From NCBI GenBank assembly GCA_963702425.1, contig CAVPCQ010000037.1, positions 128,001 to 192,000 on the forward strand: 64,000 nucleotides of DNA. The letters run 5' to 3'. The position numbers and the translations under genes were made by a program. Positions 34,958-41,557 of this stretch are shown one piece after another (positions within the stretch are counted from its first letter, which is position 1; the number at the start of each line of letters is the position of its first letter). Origin of the DNA: an uncultured Acidobacteriota bacterium. Lineage in GTDB: Bacteria; Acidobacteriota; Polarisedimenticolia; J045. The notes beneath the pieces are model-generated. The model was not told where the DNA came from. It did no database searches and saw only the letters and a program-made list of their open reading frames with translations.

Positions 34958-36583
34958 TCAATACGGCCGGTCCCAGGGATCGCTCGGTGGAGCCTCCTTC
35001 ATCGCGCGATCCCACGCCAGGGGCCCCGGGTGGGCGGCGATCGCACGCGCCGCGGCGAGCGCGAGGCCGGCGACCCGGGCCGCCTTGCCGGCATCGAGCG
35101 CGTCCGCGGTGTCGCCCGGGGTGTTGTAGTCCTTGTGCGGCCCGGTGAAGAGCATCACGGCGGGCACGTCCTTCTCGGCGAACGAGGTGTCGTCGCTCCG
35201 TCCCGGCGGGCGGAGATAGGGGAGCTTGCGGACCTCGAGCCCGACCGTCGTCGCGGCCGCGGCGAGGATCGCCGGCAGGTCGGTCGCGCGCGCGGTGTAG
35301 GAGGCGAGCACGACGCCGGCGTAGTCGCCGCGATCGCCGTTGTTGCGGCCGATCATGTCCATGTCGATCACCGCGACCGGGCGCGACCCGCCCGGCCACG
35401 GCACGGCGACGAAGGCGTGCGAGCCGAGCGCGCCCTTCTCCTCGGCGCCGAAGACGGCGAAGACCACGCTGCGGGGCAGTCCGTGGCCCGCCGCAGCGCC
35501 CGCGCGGAGCGCCTCCGCGAGCGCCAGCACGCCCGCTGTGCCGCTCGCGTTGTCGTCCGCGCCCGGGTAGACGACGAGCGACCCGTCGGCTCCCGTGTCG
35601 GCGCCGATATGATCGTAGTGGGCCGCAACGACGACGGTCTCGCCGGCGAGCTGCGGATCGCTTCCGGGGAGCACGGCGACGACGTTCTGCTGCTCGAGCG
35701 TCTCGGCGCGGTAGCCCGGCAGCACGAGCCGCACCGTCGCACCGTCCAGGGCGCGGCGGGGACTTCGCCCGACGCCGGCCGCCGCGAGCAGCTCGGCGGG
35801 AGCGGCGTGGCCCGCGGCGAACAGGCGCGCGGCGACCTGCTCGCCGACGTACACGACCGGCGGCAGGGGCGCGGTGCCGGGCAGCACGAAGCGCGGCCGC
35901 GCCTTCTCGCGCAGATCGCGGCGCCAGGATTCCTCGATCGGCCGCCCCCCCGGCGGCGCGGCGACCAGCAGCAGCGCCGCCCCCGCCTCGGCCGCGGCCG
36001 CGGCCTTCGTGGCGACGAACGAGAAGCGCGACATCCGGCCCGGCGCGAAGGCCGAGCGATCCCCGTCCAGCTTGGGCTCGCCGGCCCAGACCAGGACCGC
36101 GCGCCCCTTGACGTCGAGCCCGGCGAAGTCGTCGTGTTCCGGCTCCCGCGCACGGATCCCCCAGCCGGCGAAGACGACGGAAAGGGGCGCCGTAGCGGCT
36201 TCGGTCGGCGGCGCCAGCAGCTCGACGAACACCCCCCGCCCCTGGGGAACGGCGGCCGTGTCGCCGACTGCGAGCCCCGCGCCGGCCTGGTCGAAAGAGA
36301 GCCGCTGGACGTCGAAGGGCTGCAGGTAGGCGCCGTCCGGCCCGGCCCCGGCGAGCCCCATCCTGGCGAAGCGCTGGGCGACCGCGAGCGCGGCGAGCGC
36401 AGCCTCCGGCGTGCCGGCCTCCCGGCCGCGCAGCGCGGGGTGGGCCAGGAGCTGGACGTCGGCGGCGATCGAGGCGGCGGAGATCGTCTGCGCCGCGGCG
36501 GCCGGGACGGTGAGCGCGAGCAGCGTCGCGAGCGCGGCCCGGCCGGCCGCGCGAGCGGGAACGGAGGCGCGTGAGCGGGTCAT
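34958..36583 (-). CDS. Secreted M28 family peptidase with PA domain
   Basis: GREAGT, AHYDHIG, PGADDNASG, FGAEEKG, DMDMIGR, RSDD; signal peptide from ATG 36583. Confidence 0.92.
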   Translation of the reverse strand: MTRSRASVPARAAGRAALATLLALTVPAAAAQTISAASIAADVQLLAHPALRGREAGTPEAALAALAVAQRFARMGLAGAGPDGAYLQPFDVQRLSFDQAGAGLAVGDTAAVPQGRGVFVELLAPPTEAATAPLSVVFAGWGIRAREPEHDDFAGLDVKGRAVLVWAGEPKLDGDRSAFAPGRMSRFSFVATKAAAAAEAGAALLLVAAPPGGRPIEESWRRDLREKARPRFVLPGTAPLPPVVYVGEQVAARLFAAGHAAPAELLAAAGVGRSPRRALDGATVRLVLPGYRAETLEQQNVVAVLPGSDPQLAGETVVVAAHYDHIGADTGADGSLVVYPGADDNASGTAGVLALAEALRAGAAAGHGLPRSVVFAVFGAEEKGALGSHAFVAVPWPGGSRPVAVIDMDMIGRNNGDRGDYAGVVLASYTARATDLPAILAAAATTVGLEVRKLPYLRPPGRSDDTSFAEKDVPAVMLFTGPHKDYNTPGDTADALDAGKAARVAGLALAAARAIAAHPGPLAWDRAMKEAPPSDPWDRPY

Positions 36584-36621
36584 GCCCGCATCGTAACCCG
36601 GGCAGTTAAACTCCGCGCATG

Positions 36622-38665
36622 GTGCGTCGTGAAGAAGCCGGTGGCCAGGGCCAGCAGACGGCGATGGGGGTCCGGTTTCATGCTGCACCGATCCAGCGGG
36701 TGGAAGTCCCGCCCCGGTAAGCGCCGGAGCGCCGGGTAGCAGGCCCCAGGCGAGGGCGGGAGACCGCCTTGCCCGAGCGGGGCATCGAAAGCCTGCGAGG
36801 CGGCGGAAGCCGTGCCGCAGGGAGCGAGCACGCGGGCCGCAACCTGAAGTGAAGCCTGCAGCCTCGACAGAGGAACAATCCGGGGGCCGAGCCGCTCATG
36901 TCACGGCGAAGGCAACACCGCCCGCGTCAGAACCGGAGCGCGCGGGCGGTCCCGGCGGGGTAGGGGGCGCAGCACGCGTGCAAGGAGCGGTGCGGAACAC
37001 GAGAGACCCGTCTGCGCGGCCCACGTCGGGGCCAGGCGCGCCGTATCAGCCGGAGGCGAAATCGGCCGTTGCGCAGCGGGAGTCCGAGGGGATCGTAGTA
37101 CCGGTGATCGTCGCGACGAAGAACGCGACGGGAGGGAAGGGTCCCTGCGGTGGTCATGTCGTCGAAGCAGGTAAGCGCGAGGGAATGGCCGCCGCGAGCG
37201 GACCTAACGACCCCGGCGCCGGCGAGGCGCGCGAGAAAGTGCGACGACTGCAACGACGGCTGTGGAGTGCGGCCAAACGGTCGGCTGGGAGGCGTTTTCA
37301 CGCGTTGTACGACCACCTCCACAGGGGTGACGTCCTGCGGGAAGCGTGGCGGCGAGTGCGGGCGAACCGCGGCGCGGCGGGCGTGGATGCCGAAACGATC
37401 GCCGAGGTCGAGCGGTATGGGGTCGAGCGGATGCTGAACGAACTCGGCCAGGCCCTGCGTGCGAAGGAGTACCGGGCCGGGGTGGTGCTGCGCCGGTCCA
37501 TCCCGAAGGCTGACGGAAGGCAGCGGCCGCTGGGCATCCCGACGGTCCGGGACCGGGTGGTGCAGAGGGCGGCGAAGCTGGTGCTGGAGCCGATCTTCGA
37601 GGCCGATTTCCTGCCGGTTTCGTATGGCTTCCGCCCCAAGCGGAGCGCGCAGGGTGCGCTGGAGACGCTGAGGAAGCTCGGCGCGAAGGGGCACCATCAC
37701 GTGCTCGACGCGGACATCCGCAACTACTTTGGGAGCATCGACCACGACAAGTTGCTGAAACTCGTCGGGCGACGCGTCTCGGATCGGCGGGTGCTCAAGC
37801 TGCTGCGGCAGTGGCTCGAGGCTGGGGTGCTGGAGGATGGCACGGTGACCCCGACGATCGCGGGGACGCCGCAGGGCGGGGTGATTTCACCGCTGCTGTC
37901 GAACATCTACCTGCACGTCCTTGATGTCCTGTGGACGCGACACAGCGCTCCCTTGGGGACGCTGGTGCGTTACTGTGACGACTTCGTGGTGCTGTGCCGC
38001 ACGAAGGTGGCGTGCGAGCGGGCCGAGGAGCGGATACGGGTGATCCTTGGGCGGCTCGGCCTTGAGTTACACCCGGAGAAGACGAGGCGGGTCGAACTCT
38101 GGAACGGTAAGGAGGGCTTCGATTTCCTCGGCTGCCATCTGCACAAACGTCTGAGCGGCAAGGTCTGGGAGCAGACGGGACAGCGCCTGTACTTCCTGCA
38201 CCGGTGGCCGTCTCCACGGGCGATGAAGCGGATCCGGCAGCGCGTGAAGGAGCTGACCCCGCGGGGACGATGCCACGCCGATCTGCGCGAGGTGATCGCC
38301 GTCCTCAACCCCGTCCTGCGCGGGTGGGGTGCTTACTTCCGCACCGGGAATGCCGCCAAGCGCTTCAATCAGGTCGATCGCTACGTCTGGCAACGGCTCC
38401 GGCGCTTGCGGCTTCAGCGCCAAGGCCGATCCCTCCAGCCTGGCGAGGCGGCCCGATGGACGCGCGAGTTCTTCTGGAACCTGGGATTGCACCGGCTGCG
38501 GGGCACGATCCAGTCCCCCGAACAGCCCTTCTGGCAGGCCGTGTAATGCCGCGCCTCGAGAGACCACCGGTAAGCCGTGTGCGGGAAATCCGCACGCACG
38601 GTTCGAAAGGGGGTCTTGCACGTCCGACGGGGCAACCCGGTCGGGCGCGATAGGATCTACCAATG
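36622..38665 (+). mobile_element. Group II intron (full length, RT/maturase, no endonuclease domain)
   Basis: 5' GTGCG at 36622; domain V AAGCCGTGTGCGGGAAATCCGCACGCACGGTTC (38572-38604, AGC triad); domain VI hairpin with bulged A at 38659; 3' end ...CTACCAAT(G) at 38664/38665. Confidence 0.93.
37185..38546 (+). CDS. ltrA: Group II intron reverse transcriptase/maturase
   Basis: RPLGIPTVRDRVVQ, SYGFRP, DADIRNYF, GTPQGGVISPLLSNIYLH, YCDD, FDFLG, and maturase NPVLRGWGAYF; likely ATG at 37185. Confidence 0.95.
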   Translation: MAAASGPNDPGAGEAREKVRRLQRRLWSAAKRSAGRRFHALYDHLHRGDVLREAWRRVRANRGAAGVDAETIAEVERYGVERMLNELGQALRAKEYRAGVVLRRSIPKADGRQRPLGIPTVRDRVVQRAAKLVLEPIFEADFLPVSYGFRPKRSAQGALETLRKLGAKGHHHVLDADIRNYFGSIDHDKLLKLVGRRVSDRRVLKLLRQWLEAGVLEDGTVTPTIAGTPQGGVISPLLSNIYLHVLDVLWTRHSAPLGTLVRYCDDFVVLCRTKVACERAEERIRVILGRLGLELHPEKTRRVELWNGKEGFDFLGCHLHKRLSGKVWEQTGQRLYFLHRWPSPRAMKRIRQRVKELTPRGRCHADLREVIAVLNPVLRGWGAYFRTGNAAKRFNQVDRYVWQRLRRLRLQRQGRSLQPGEAARWTREFFWNLGLHRLRGTIQSPEQPFWQAV

Positions 38666-41557
38666 CACACGACTTGCCGGAACGTACCCTTGGTCGTCCT
38701 CGTCCTCGTCCTCGCAGCGGCCGGCCTGCCGGCTGCCGCCAGTTCGGCCGCCATCACCTCACCCGCGTCCGCGTCCCCGACCGGCGCCGAACTCGCGGTC
38801 GTCACCGCCGTCCGCGAGCTCGTCTTCGCGAACGGCGCCCGGGCGTTGCTCGTGCCGCGAGCCGGGAGCGGGTCGGTGCTCGTGGCGGTCTCCGTCGGCG
38901 CCGGGGCCCAGGACGAGCCGGCCGACCGGATCGGCATGTCGCACTTCCTCGAGCACCTGCTGTTCGACGGCTTCGACGGGATGGACGAGCGCGGCGTGAC
39001 CGAGGCGTTCGAAGCGCTCTCCTCGTACGTCAACGCGTTCACGCGCGACCAGGCGACGGTCTACTTCGCGCTCACGCCGCGCGAGGAGGCCGCGCGCGCC
39101 GCCGCGCTGCTGGCCGGGATGCTCACGCGCTCCACGATCCCGGAGGCCGCCTTCGAGAAGGAGCGGAAGGTGATCCTCGAGGAACTCGCGCGCGAGGCGG
39201 CGCAGCCCTCCATGGTGCGCGAGCAGGCGGCGCGCGCCGCGCTGTGGCAGGACAGCCCTTGGGCCCGCTCGGCGGGGGGCACGCCCGAGACCGTCGGCGC
39301 GGCGACGCGCGACGAGGTCGTTTCGTTCTGGAAGCGCCACTACGTCCCCGGGGCGATGCGCATCCTCGCGATCGGCGACGCGGACCCGGCGACACTCGCC
39401 GCGATCCTGGCGCCGCTCGAAGCGCTGCCGCCCCCCGCGGCGCCCGGCGCGCGCCCGGCGCCGCCGCGCCCCGGGCCCGCGCGCCCGTCGCCCCGCAACT
39501 TCCCGCACTGGGCGACCTGGGTCGCTACGCCCGCGGGGGAGGAACCGCCGCAGCTGACGGTCGCCCTGGTGCCGCCCGCGGGGGTCGCGGGCGGACCCGC
39601 ACTCGACGTGCTGGCCGAGTGGCTGGGCGACGACGGCGGCCCGGTGTCGAAGGCACTCGTCGGTCACGGCGCGACCGAGGTCTCCGCCGGCCGGCTGCCC
39701 CGCCGGCCCGACGACGTGATCGAGATCACCGTCACCGCCGCGGAGGGCCAGGATCCGCAGGAGCTGCTCGCCCGCGCACTCGGCGTGCTCGAGGCCGCGC
39801 GCAGCGGACCGCTCGACGCCGAGGCGACGCGCCTGGCGCGGGCGTGGCTCTCCGAGCGCGCGCTCTCGCGCCAGCGCCTGCACTACACCGCGGTCCTGGA
39901 CGGTGAAGCGCTCGCCGCCGCCGATTCGCTGCAGGCGGCGATCGATCCGCGGGCGCCCACTGCAGCCGAGCTGCGCGCACTGGCTGCCGCGATCCTGACC
40001 GGCCTCGCGCCGCGCGCGCGCGCGGTCTGGTCGGGGCCGGGTGGGCCCGCGTCGCGCGTCGCGCTCCCGGCGCCGGTCGCGGCCGCGCCCGGGTCGGCGT
40101 CGAAGATCGCTGCCGGACCGCGCGGCAGCCGCGTGGCGACCCTTCCGAACGGACTCGTCCTCGGGGTGCTCGAGGAGCCGGGCAGCCCGGTCTTCGGGAT
40201 CCACCTGCTCGTGGCCGACCGCAATGCGCGCGAGCCGGCGGGCCAGGACGGCGCCGCCGACCTCGCGCACCGCCTGCTCGGGGAGGGTAGCCAGCTGAGT
40301 CCCGGAGAGAGCTTCGAGCGTCGCCTGCAGCGCGCCGGGATCGATCTCACCCCGGCCGACAACCCGATGATCCCGATGGACGATCGTTACCACGTGCCGG
40401 CCTGGTCCTACGTGCGGGAGGAGGGGCCGGCGGACGAGTTGGACGCGGCGCTCGAGTTGCTGGCCGAGATGCTGCGCCAGCCGCAGTGGAACACCGCGGC
40501 GTGGGAGGCCGCGCTGTCCGCTCACCGCCAGTCGCGGCGCGCGGGCGGGCAGGGGAGCGCGCGCCTCGACGCGGCCCTCCGGGCGCGGCTGCTCGGCCCC
40601 GATCACCCGTTGGCGCGGCCGGCGTCCGGGAGGCCCGACGCCCCCCCCCCGACCGAGGACCAGGTCCGTGCGTTCTGGGGGACCGGAACGGACGGCTACT
40701 TCGCGCCGGCCGCGCTGGTGCTGACGGTGGCGTCGCCCTGGGACGCGGCGACGGTCGTCGAGCGGGTCCTGGAGCTGCTCGGGACCGGTCCGGGCGCTGC
40801 CCCCGCCCGCGTTGCCTACCCCGACCCGAGCCCACGTGATACGCCTCCCGCAGCCGCGGCCGTGTCGGCCCCCCCGGCGCCACCCTCTGCGGCGTCCGGC
40901 GCCCCGGCGGCCCCCCCTGGAATGGCGGACCCTTCGTCGAAAGGGATGCCTTCCGGGATGCCTCCCGGGATGCCTCCGGGAATGCCCCCCACGATGCCCC
41001 CCACGATGCCGCCCGGGATGCCTGCCGGCGCCGGCGGCACGGGCCCCGGGGGGCCGCCCCCGCAGCTCGGCCTGGCCTGGGGGCGCGTGGTCGGAGTGCC
41101 CCCGGCGGATCGCGCCGCGCTGCTCGTCGCGGTCTCCGCGCTCGAGGACCGGATGACGGCGGAGTTGCGCGAGAAGCAGGGGCTGCTCTACCGCCATGAC
41201 GCGGGGGTTCGCGCGTTGCCGCGCGGCGAGTGGCTGATCTCGGCGTCGTTCTCGACGCGCCCCGAGAACGAGGCCCAGGCGATCGCCGCGTTCGAGTCGC
41301 TGCTCACCGGTCTCGCTGCGCAGCCGCTGCCTGCCGCCGATCTCGAGCGCATGCTGGCCCGCGCGCGGCGGCGCGCGATGCTCGACGGGCAGTCGGCCGT
41401 CTCGCGGGCCTACACCCTGGGGCGCCAGATCTACGAGGGGGACGCGTCGCCGCTCGGGATCACGCTGGCCGCGCTGGAGCAGGTGACGCCGCAGGCGGTC
41501 CAGGCGGCCGCCGCGGCGTGGCTCGAGCCCTCGCGGATGGCGCGGGTCCAGCAGTGA
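38663..41557 (+). CDS. Secreted M16 family (insulinase-like) zinc peptidase
   Basis: Signal peptide; GMSHFLEHLLF (HxxEH), NAFT, EKERKVILEE; second inactive M16 half. Confidence 0.92.
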   Translation: MHTTCRNVPLVVLVLVLAAAGLPAAASSAAITSPASASPTGAELAVVTAVRELVFANGARALLVPRAGSGSVLVAVSVGAGAQDEPADRIGMSHFLEHLLFDGFDGMDERGVTEAFEALSSYVNAFTRDQATVYFALTPREEAARAAALLAGMLTRSTIPEAAFEKERKVILEELAREAAQPSMVREQAARAALWQDSPWARSAGGTPETVGAATRDEVVSFWKRHYVPGAMRILAIGDADPATLAAILAPLEALPPPAAPGARPAPPRPGPARPSPRNFPHWATWVATPAGEEPPQLTVALVPPAGVAGGPALDVLAEWLGDDGGPVSKALVGHGATEVSAGRLPRRPDDVIEITVTAAEGQDPQELLARALGVLEAARSGPLDAEATRLARAWLSERALSRQRLHYTAVLDGEALAAADSLQAAIDPRAPTAAELRALAAAILTGLAPRARAVWSGPGGPASRVALPAPVAAAPGSASKIAAGPRGSRVATLPNGLVLGVLEEPGSPVFGIHLLVADRNAREPAGQDGAADLAHRLLGEGSQLSPGESFERRLQRAGIDLTPADNPMIPMDDRYHVPAWSYVREEGPADELDAALELLAEMLRQPQWNTAAWEAALSAHRQSRRAGGQGSARLDAALRARLLGPDHPLARPASGRPDAPPPTEDQVRAFWGTGTDGYFAPAALVLTVASPWDAATVVERVLELLGTGPGAAPARVAYPDPSPRDTPPAAAAVSAPPAPPSAASGAPAAPPGMADPSSKGMPSGMPPGMPPGMPPTMPPTMPPGMPAGAGGTGPGGPPPQLGLAWGRVVGVPPADRAALLVAVSALEDRMTAELREKQGLLYRHDAGVRALPRGEWLISASFSTRPENEAQAIAAFESLLTGLAAQPLPAADLERMLARARRRAMLDGQSAVSRAYTLGRQIYEGDASPLGITLAALEQVTPQAVQAAAAAWLEPSRMARVQQ
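40943..41026 (+). repeat. Imperfect 12-bp tandem repeat x7 encoding (G/T)MPP
   Basis: GGGATGCCTTCC GGGATGCCTCCC GGGATGCCTCCG GGAATGCCCCCC ACGATGCCCCCC ACGATGCCGCCC GGGATGCCTGCC. Confidence 0.85.

Follow-up and report, generated by a model that had tools for sequence, protein, structure and literature searches.

Why does a group II intron stand exactly on the start codon of a bacterial gene, and what does it leave the host to translate? The question is raised by a 64,000-nt stretch of DNA (hereafter the window) from an uncultured Acidobacteriota bacterium (contig CAVPCQ010000037.1, assembly GCA_963702425.1), in which an intron lies between the ATG and the second codon of an M16 peptidase gene. 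A preliminary description, made from the letters alone, had noted this arrangement and suggested an intron lineage that is specialised for start codons and harmless without splicing. The best explanation of the locus as a whole, and a highly probable one, is a lineage homing to the first four positions of leaderless-type genes. It is carried by the anatomy of the element and its precise insertion, by three RNA pairings with the target, by recurrence of the layout across the lineage, and by a reading frame kept open from the host start codon. The main features, in window coordinates, are the following.

36607–36612, + strand: TAAACT, a −10-like hexamer 6 nt 5′ of the host ATG, kept in the empty sites of three sister genomes
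36622–38665, + strand: group II intron of 2044 nt, GUGCG...CUACCAAUG (Rfam, Pfam, empty sites, exon-binding site 3 (EBS3), fold of domain VI (DVI))
37179–38546, + strand: internal Shine-Dalgarno (SD) sequence GAGGGA (37179–37184) and open reading frame (ORF) of the reverse transcriptase (RT)/maturase (37185–38546), 453 aa, without endonuclease domain, intact
38572–38604, + strand: domain V (DV; Rfam and fold)
38609–38661, + strand: DVI with the candidate branch-point bulged A at 38659 (fold, z = −4.4)
38663–38665, + strand: terminal AUG, in frame with the host ORF, a non-canonical 3′ end (sequence, empty sites, EBS3, lineage survey)
38666–41557, + strand: 3′ exon, the M16 peptidase ORF from its second codon (Pfam)

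At the left junction, TAAACT is followed by six bases, the ATG (36619–36621) and then GTGCG from 36622. At the right junction, gatAGGAtctaccaATG at 38663–38665 is followed by CACACG. The Rfam models D1D4-4 (62.1 bits) and D1D4-6 (54.2 bits) both score above their gathering score of 49 on the intron, and the DV/DVI model RF00029 reaches 39.0 bits, slightly below its gathering score of 40. The RT ORF contains RVT_1 (3.2e-34) and GIIM (2.1e-17) with no domain after GIIM, scores 402.6 bits against the NCBIfam model of group II RT/maturases (TIGR04416, cut-off 300), and has group II RTs as its closest solved structures (about 1e-50). PDB relatives of IIA, IIB and IIC score alike, and no class name for the RT was obtained from PDB relatives, NCBIfam or plasmid records (one close plasmid record, unannotated). 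From the intron 5′ end to the RT start there are 563 nt, and all that lies close to the 5′ end is a variable hairpin of about 50 nt. The GTGCG at 36622 agrees with the GUGYG consensus. In the DVI fold, the single bulged A38659 is followed by two pairs and an unpaired AAUG tail; it is the seventh base counted from the intron end, within the usual 7–8 nt. The exception is the 3′ end, where the intron terminates in ...CCAAUG and thus in UG, not AY. Since all other core group II features are present, this is read as a variant end and not as a sign of non-membership. Read from the terminal AUG (38663–41557), the M16 peptidase ORF encodes 964 aa with a signal-peptide-like N-terminus.

The exact ends can be traced through copies of the intron and through orthologous sites that lack it. 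A second copy (97%) is found in the same genome (L002, G000:C17:143589-145631, − strand) and a third (95%) in a sister genome (L007, G003:C19:183512-185554). The flanks of these local copies diverge on the left up to ...[A/G]TG and on the right after ...CCAATG. A chance origin of the layout in the window is excluded, since the same layout is present in the 97% copy, the 95% copy and about 60 distant relatives. Empty orthologous sites were detected at four loci in at least 18 genomes. At the peptidase gene three sister genomes read ...ACTCCGCG[C/T]ATG|CG[C/G]..., equal in length to 36621 joined to 38666. At the copy-3 site two genomes read ...TAGTCTCGG[T/C]CCGTG|CGAGCG..., and a third (L045) is alike by eye. 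At the sites of Mycobacterium simiae and Sorangium So ce176, all congeners inspected (6/6 and 7/7, respectively) have the start codon directly followed by codon 2 with no extra base. No empty site of copy 2 was found in four sister genomes (completeness 81–96%).

The length of the empty sites means that the inserted unit has 2044 nt (GTGCG...CCAATG) and not 2043. By themselves, the empty sites leave room for cyclic shifts of this unit of at most three bases. Canonical outgroup introns end in GA-CC-CUAC, that is, the bulged A plus six bases, and the same count is found here in A-CC-AAUG. From the sequence, the intron is read as having a canonical 5′ end (GUGCG) and a non-canonical 3′ end, a start codon, with the boundary after the AUG. 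Several statements of the preliminary description are upheld here. Its layout of both junctions was borne out when the sequence was re-read, removal of 36622–38665 does restore the host start, and canonical GUGYG...AY ends do not fit, because the empty sites, the EBS3 covariation and the spacing in DVI put the end after the AUG. The intron-less alleles that it had suggested looking for in relatives exist at the four loci and reveal clean insertion directly after the start codon.

Two other placements of the ends were rejected. A one-base shift (GGUGCG...AAU, splitting the start codon after its second position) cannot be told apart in DNA alone; it was set aside because EBS1 has the same register as in outgroups whose exons are unrelated, and because the partner of EBS3 is the base following the G. 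Ends of the form ATGGTGCG...CCA, with the 3′ ATG belonging to the host, are contradicted by copy 3, where the 5′ exon is GTG and the empty sites keep GTG, and would also put the bulged A just 3 nt from the end. A separate observation concerns the second base of the 3′ exon: CA follows all three copies of this genus (window 38666–38667, L002, L007) and their empty sites have CG. This base covaries with no intron column, and the M. simiae and Sorangium sites have no such difference. The difference could be due to chance or allele choice; contact with the protein is another possibility.

The pairings of the intron with its target were located at the following positions.

36618–36621, + strand: intron-binding site 1 (IBS1) CATG, including the host start codon 36619–36621; pairs with EBS1 CAUG, start codon kept in empty sites
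36870–36873, + strand: EBS2-like GAGG, pairs with CTC (36611–36613) of the −10 region (alignment columns 274–277)
36897–36900, + strand: EBS1 CAUG in the loop CUCAUGUCA (36895–36903; covariation, outgroup loop comparison)
36963, + strand: EBS3 (G), pairs with C38666, the first base of the 3′ exon (covariation)

Covariation was counted in an alignment of 48 introns for EBS1 and EBS3 and of 45 for EBS2. For EBS1, exon position −3 pairs with alignment column 315 in 43/48 introns and position −4 with column 316 in 40/48 (Watson-Crick). In the outgroup introns L118, L119 and L120, the same loop carries a 6-nt EBS1 that pairs with their unrelated 5′ exons, and the second loop base is the partner of the last exon base. 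Across the lineage EBS1 is CAU, often CAUG, opposite the start codon. EBS3 corresponds to column 391, which in 42 of the 48 introns is the Watson-Crick complement of the base following the terminal AUG (45 with wobble pairs included; next best column 26), and this places the start of the 3′ exon after the AUG. EBS2 is 4 nt long and covers hexamer positions 4–6 and the next base. Its partner in the window, IBS2, is the CTC at 36611–36613, the 3′ part of TAAACT plus one base. Hexamer position 5 pairs with column 276 (37/45, Watson-Crick) and the base after the hexamer with column 274 (35/45), and an invariant A at column 275 lies opposite the final T of the hexamer. Both exons are thus paired with the intron, and the single start codon of the empty sites indicates insertion without target duplication. 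EBS1 and EBS3, for which the preliminary description had proposed folding domain I, were found there by outgroup comparison and covariation (loop 36895–36903; G36963). The pairing of EBS2 with the −10 box, like the open frame from the host AUG described below, is absent from that description and new here. L078 sits after a TTG start codon although its EBS1 is CAU.

The same layout was then sought in the flanks of RT homologues. An RT search with one genome per species gave at least 594 confirmed relatives among 600 stretches scored, and the best 80 (50–83% identity) were kept. The 3′ end was readable in 64 introns (61 loci and the three copies). The 19 loci left out are two contigs ending early, one interrupted RT, 14 outgroup loci without the motif, the false match L127, and L109, whose end escaped the pattern and by eye reads CUAUCCAAUG. 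The terminal triplet is AUG in 60/64 introns, GUG in three and ACG in one. The 5′ junction was placeable at 54 sites, including L120, an outgroup intron included by accident. At these sites the 5′ exon ends in ATG (45), GTG (8, one of which is L120) or TTG (1). A TAnnnT hexamer ends 6 (33 sites), 7 (16) or 8 (3) bases before the start codon at 52/54 sites, against 121 of 10415 [AG]TG sites (1.2%) with this spacing in the same loci. The two sites without TAnnnT are L068 (GACAAT) and L120.

On the 3′ side, 46 of the 56 loci with enough flank have at least 100 stop-free codons in the frame of the terminal AUG (other frames: 11 and 25). Among the downstream ORFs of at least 60 codons, 40/50 match Pfam families. 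These are mutually unrelated and include MnmE, SmpB, a class I tRNA synthetase, gamma-glutamyltranspeptidase, MFS, GntR, M28 and antitoxins, and protein and profile are aligned from their first residues on. The start-codon layout therefore recurs before unrelated genes, as the preliminary description had expected of RT homologues, and its proposal of a lineage specialised for start codons is well founded in these counts and in the four loci with empty sites.

The carriers belong to about ten phyla overall: Pseudomonadota, Myxococcota, Acidobacteriota, Planctomycetota, Spirochaetota, Actinomycetota, Chloroflexota, Gemmatimonadota, Nitrospirota and a Melainabacteria metagenome-assembled genome. 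Cultured carriers include Sorangium sp. So ce176, Embleya sp. NBC_00896, Nannocystis pusilla Na p29 and Pelomonas dachongensis DC23W. The AUG-end trait fills a clade of 55 rows (support 97 in the Shimodaira-Hasegawa-like approximate likelihood ratio test, SH-aLRT) and a second set of nine rows in a quick maximum-likelihood tree of 78 RTs; a Paenibacillaceae clade and a clade of eight have canonical or different ends. A single origin of the trait is likely, with the tree unrooted.

Some members of the survey and its outgroups deviate in other ways. Many actinobacterial members have the 5′ end UUGCG instead of GUGCG (L074, L076, L078, L085, L087, L090, L092-L096, L099). In the Paenibacillaceae outgroup (L115, L116, L123-L126), three introns (L116, L125, L126) are conserved up to ...ACUCUAG after DVI and then diverge; this would be another non-AY end. 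In L089 and L100 the RT match extends over about 3 kb owing to an insertion in the RT region, which could be a twintron or another element. Metatranscriptome contigs (RNA runs X20 and X18) skip the RT ORF, with joints corresponding to 37161–38569 (1407 nt) and 37219–38562 (1342 nt) of the window. ORF-less derivatives of the lineage thus exist and appear in RNA libraries.

The upstream side of the target resembles a known type of promoter. In Mycobacterium tuberculosis, 73% of primary start sites have a TANNNT motif whose centre lies 7–12 bp in front of them, with no −35 element (Cortes 2013, PMC3898074). A TAnnnT hexamer 6–8 bases before a start codon, with no space for an SD, would be a leaderless layout in which transcription probably starts at the A of the ATG. 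The neighbouring gene has the same geometry.

34958–36583, − strand: divergent neighbour gene, 541 aa with a signal peptide; M28-like by recognised motifs, with no family scan
36590–36595, − strand: TACGAT, a −10-like hexamer 6 nt 5′ of the divergent ATG (TANNNT geometry)

The ATG of the divergent gene (36583 to 36581) lies 35 nt from that of the host gene. With TACGAT-N6-ATG on one side and TAAACT-N6-ATG on the other, both back-to-back genes have leaderless-type starts. The idea that the −10 box was brought by the element is ruled out by its presence in the empty sites.

In the genome of the window (G000), 2209 sites fit the paired part of the target and 18 of them have TA in place. Both occupied sites in G000 have TA, and 14 of the 18 TA sites precede ORFs longer than 150 codons. 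The invariant TA is needed beyond RNA pairing: either some other component reads it, or it is kept because the promoter has to work. Copy 2 stands at the motif before merely 20 codons, which argues for recognition of the motif rather than of a gene. Throughout G000, 364 of 666 TAnnnT-N6-8-[AG]TG sites precede at least 100 open codons, compared with 192 of 468 at control spacing. This is a modest enrichment in a genome with 71% GC, so the motif count is no measure of the number of leaderless genes. The 18 unoccupied G000 sites that fit EBS1, EBS2, EBS3 and TA (for example C19:105078) include the orthologue of a site occupied in a sister genome.

The frame that begins at the host start codon was followed into the intron in 56 introns. 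These were split into subclade A (n = 33, including the three copies; RTs at least about 55% identical; GUGCG ends) and subclade B (n = 23; mostly Actinomycetota, many with UUGCG ends). The median number of codons to the first stop in the host-start frame is 638 in subclade A and 125 in subclade B; the corresponding values for the other two frames are 26 and 3 (A) and 17 and 3 (B). The host-start frame is open for at least 100 codons in 30/33 introns of A and 19/23 of B (49/56 in all), the other frames in none. In subclade A the host-start frame is the RT frame, and it is stop-free through domains I–III in 28/33 introns; the other frames contain 5.2 and 6.4 stops on average through these domains and are never stop-free. 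In subclade B the frame ends either at a conserved position within domain III or 3 nt short of the RT ATG. A conserved protein in the N-terminal extension was considered and rejected, as codon periodicity is nearly absent. Given this near absence and the conservation of the RT's own SD and ATG, it is probably the open frame that is selected, and not a protein domain. On the simplest reading, ribosomes would initiate at the 5′ AUG when the RNA carries the intron and would have to be spared an early stop. The open frame may help to make the RT, protect the RNA from premature transcription termination or decay, or bring ribosomes towards the terminal AUG.

The local copies differ in how much of this arrangement they retain.

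36670–36671, + strand: two extra bases (GT) compared with copies 2 and 3 (three-copy alignment, frame analysis)

The window copy is slightly decayed: this insertion breaks its long frame, and its RT is intact (one tblastn segment over 451 residues). Copies 2 and 3 have in common a +1 frameshift close to RT residue 331, ahead of the maturase domain, and still have 677 open codons counted from the host start codon. They may use the intact RT of the window copy in trans, or the frameshift may be read through.

The end of the intron carries further signals.

38651–38656, + strand: TAGGAT in the 3′ strand of DVI, 6 nt before the terminal ATG; SD-like or a second leaderless-type −10 box

The preliminary description had proposed that DVI rebuilds a ribosome-binding site for the host gene. 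AGGA (38652–38655) is indeed inside the DVI stem, on its 3′ strand, and that part of the claim stands. It is also part of TAGGAT-N6-ATG and fits a −10 box equally well, and it is not a property of the whole lineage: SD-like purines lie 5–16 nt before the terminal AUG in 23/64 introns, TAnnnT-N6 precedes it in 12/64, and a large actinobacterial subclade has CCCCUGACUACCAAUG instead. The preferred reading is that the terminal AUG would keep codon 2 behind a start codon on unspliced RNA, because the triplet is conserved where canonical relatives have YAY, because GUG is its only common variant, and because many of the host genes are indispensable. On this reading the intron may be harmless to the host gene without splicing, as first proposed.

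Two degenerate relatives were found in a sister genome (G004). L030 (positions about 1380–1633; G004:C4, about 1436490–1436750) is a decayed ORF-less remnant in which a piece of domain I, DV and DVI are recognisable. It ends in TAGAAT-CGACCT-ATG before a 325-codon ORF of an OBG/DRG-like GTPase, and its intron end was possibly exapted as promoter and start codon. L009 (about 1430–1620; G004:C3:224226-224405) is a second fragment, which matches domain I and DV and has no recognisable ends.

A mechanism can be proposed from these data. The target would be TAnnnT, 6–8 nt and [A/G]TG | N, with the start codon read by EBS1, the −10 box by EBS2 and the next base by EBS3, and insertion would take place exactly between the start codon and codon 2. 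In this position the host promoter would transcribe the intron with a 5′ exon that is probably AUG only. The intron's own AUG would stand in for the canonical AY, which would leave host codon 2 still preceded by a start codon in unspliced RNA, and splicing would restore the original AUG|codon 2. The host AUG would head a stop-free frame through most of the ribozyme, and in the subclade of the window into the RT. Ribosomes from the 5′ AUG would probably translate into the intron, for RT synthesis, as a guard against premature termination of the long RNA, or both. The three near-identical copies at different sites bear on putative retrohoming. From sequence we infer that transcription starts at the A of the ATG, that splicing works with a 3-nt exon, that the terminal AUG is a start codon and that translation proceeds through the ribozyme.

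A bolder version of this proposal is tentative, and somewhat less than an even chance is given to it. It holds that the promoter/start-codon unit of leaderless genes is a fourth target specificity of group II introns and that the element exchanges start codons with its host. The element would take the 5′-terminal AUG of the host, from which 70S ribosomes would translate through the ribozyme into the RT, and a new AUG would be returned to the host as the last three nucleotides, to which some members would add a −10 box or an SD in DVI. If the target were read while RNA polymerase holds −10 to +3 open, this would explain the TA that has no RNA pairing. Decayed copies would leave intron-derived promoters and start codons, as the L030 remnant suggests.

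Several observations weigh against the proposed mechanism. A 3-nt 5′ exon is, to our knowledge, shorter than any known to work in group II splicing. Public reads represent related introns from metagenomes, and no 36621/38666 joint and no intron ends were found in them (best run 0.29 of sampled words). A strict sigma-70 scan of 36450–36750 finds no promoter, which leaves the TAnnnT pattern to carry the −10 reading by itself. The 80 loci were picked by the similarity of their RT to that of the window intron, and kin are not independent. As for host genes, copy 2 precedes only a 20-codon ORF, and 4/56 sites have fewer than 40 codons. The SD-like element is present in only 23/64 introns, so unspliced translation from the terminal AUG is not obviously provided for in most members. 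With regard to the open frame, that of the window copy is broken after 33 codons by the insertion at 36670–36671, copies 2 and 3 carry the +1 frameshift in the RT, and the N-terminal extension is nearly without codon periodicity (entropy 0.53/0.58/0.64 vs 0.59/0.47/1.08 in the RT). The internal SD and ATG of the RT are conserved too, which means that the fused frame is not needed for making the RT.

The main rival to this mechanism is that the terminal AUG serves the ribozyme and not the ribosome. It would be an IBS1 mimic that pairs with EBS1 after loss of the pppAUG exon and offers an AUG|N junction for hydrolysis, so that a complete lariat is freed for mobility while the host relies on the spliced fraction or is sacrificed. 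In agreement with this, the terminal triplet varies like IBS1 (AUG or GUG, both of which pair with CAU), 41/64 members have no SD before it, and a 3-bp exon-intron pairing would seem too weak to hold a free trinucleotide. Yet in L075, where EBS1 is CAC and the 5′ exon GUG, the terminal triplet is AUG and would create an A-C mismatch; the conserved A before the terminal AUG faces a fourth EBS1 base that is mostly G, which limits the mimic to at most 3 bp; and the hosts include many housekeeping genes, such as mnmE, smpB and that of a class I tRNA synthetase, whose loss the cell would not tolerate. The mimic is therefore considered unlikely as a replacement for the start-codon role, with which it is nevertheless compatible. 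A different objection would make TAnnnT a recognition motif only (IBS2 plus protein contacts) and no promoter, with ordinary leaders arriving from further upstream. EBS2 does read part of the hexamer, and no canonical −35/−10 pair was found in 36450–36750. The hexamer is present in empty sites of species without the intron, however, and so belongs to the genes. The 35 nt between the two divergent start codons, each with TAnnnT-N6, leave no room for leaders or SD sequences, and the geometry equals that of mapped mycobacterial leaderless promoters as given in PMC3898074. In addition, the ATG is the true N-terminus of the host gene families, and a frame kept open from it makes sense only if ribosomes start there on intron-bearing RNA. 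The absence of promoter function is thus improbable.

Splicing restores the exact original mRNA in principle, and kin share traits by descent. Host genes could accordingly be expressed by efficient splicing alone, with the terminal AUG and the open frame as neutral legacies of one ancestor. What makes this very improbable is that AUG is kept in 60/64 introns, with RTs down to about 55% identical, while the adjoining DVI sequence changes freely. The exceptions include GUG (3), itself a start codon, and canonical relatives keep YAY in this place. One frame is stop-free over 300 to 1900 nt in 49/56 introns and the other two in none. Finally, a canonical intron (36622–38664, GUGCG...AAU) could stand before the gene by chance, or a sequencing indel could hide canonical ends. 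AAU is an AY end, and the bulged A would be sixth from it. Taking out these 2043 nt gives a junction one base longer than each of the empty sites, the covariation of EBS3 is with the base that follows the G and not with the G itself, and the non-AY end recurs across the assemblies of 64 introns (AUG in 60). The canonical ends are ruled out by the empty sites and EBS3, and this explanation is refuted, with next to no probability left to it. The preferred reading thus remains that of an intron lineage homing to leaderless-type starts.

If this reading is correct, it has wider consequences. Bacterial group II introns are thought to survive by gene avoidance. The lineage would add a fourth target strategy, embedded in gene expression, namely the transcription/translation start of leaderless genes. 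It would tolerate or exploit a three-nucleotide 5′ exon, break the AY rule with a start codon and keep a frame open through the ribozyme. The minimal length of a 5′ exon, competition or cooperation between ribosomes and ribozyme folding, the possible reading of a promoter by a ribonucleoprotein, and the creation of new translation or transcription starts by mobile introns all become testable questions. Gene callers will misplace the starts of such host genes and of the RT. The short generic target is of possible interest for targetron design in high-GC bacteria.

Among known systems, the open frame has its nearest counterpart in the yeast mitochondrial coxI introns aI1 and aI2, whose frame for the intron-encoded protein (IEP) runs from the upstream exon through domains I–III into the RT. 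The frame described here likewise leads from a host exon through domains I–III into the RT. It differs in that the exon part is the start codon alone, the hosts are bacterial, and an internal SD and ATG for the RT are also kept. Full-text searches of the literature, which did not extend to supplements, the intron database or Michel et al. 2007, turned up no account of introns that end in AUG, of introns sited at leaderless genes or of a bacterial IEP frame joined to the host start codon. The lineage is apparently a large family undescribed so far.

A link to translation signals is known from the IIB1/CL1 family, which is described as inserted in or next to initiation or termination codons (Michel et al. 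2007, as cited in PMC12584367 and PMC4028801). According to Gomes et al. (2025, PMC12584367), this family has a subdomain Ia of 300–700 nt near the 5′ end and is described from proteobacteria. The RT of its member EcKTE56.groEL has an endonuclease domain, and the groEL introns split a stop codon and rebuild the stop from UAA to UAG (PMC12584367). The likeness lies in monophyletic bacterial introns tied to host translation signals, here a start codon and a new AUG. Unlike the IIB1 family so described, the window intron has no large 5′ insertion (563 nt to the RT start), and its RT, unlike that of EcKTE56.groEL, has 453 aa with RVT_1 and GIIM only. The hosts here belong to about ten phyla, the insertion point invariably follows a start codon preceded by a −10 box, and the introns end in AUG. 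By the description in PMC12584367, the lineage lacks two of the defining features of the IIB1 family and is set apart from it.

In its target strategy, the lineage can be compared with IIC and IIC-attC introns. A 2015 review lists three target specificities of group II introns: homing sites, terminators and attC (PMC4424553). Shared with IIC and IIC-attC introns are an RT without endonuclease, a generic genomic signal in place of a long homing site, and an EBS1–IBS1 pairing of 3–4 bp; in both cases the signal marks a safe, transcribed niche. IIC-attC introns are reported with outward promoters (PMC3001079), to which TAGGAT-N6-ATG in DVI is comparable. No terminator-like hairpin was found in 36450–36750, and the terminator or attC hairpin and the lack of EBS2 that characterise group IIC do not apply to this intron. 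Unlike in IIC and IIC-attC introns, the signal here is not a DNA hairpin but a −10 box with a start codon, and it is read by an intron in which both EBS2 and EBS3 are present.

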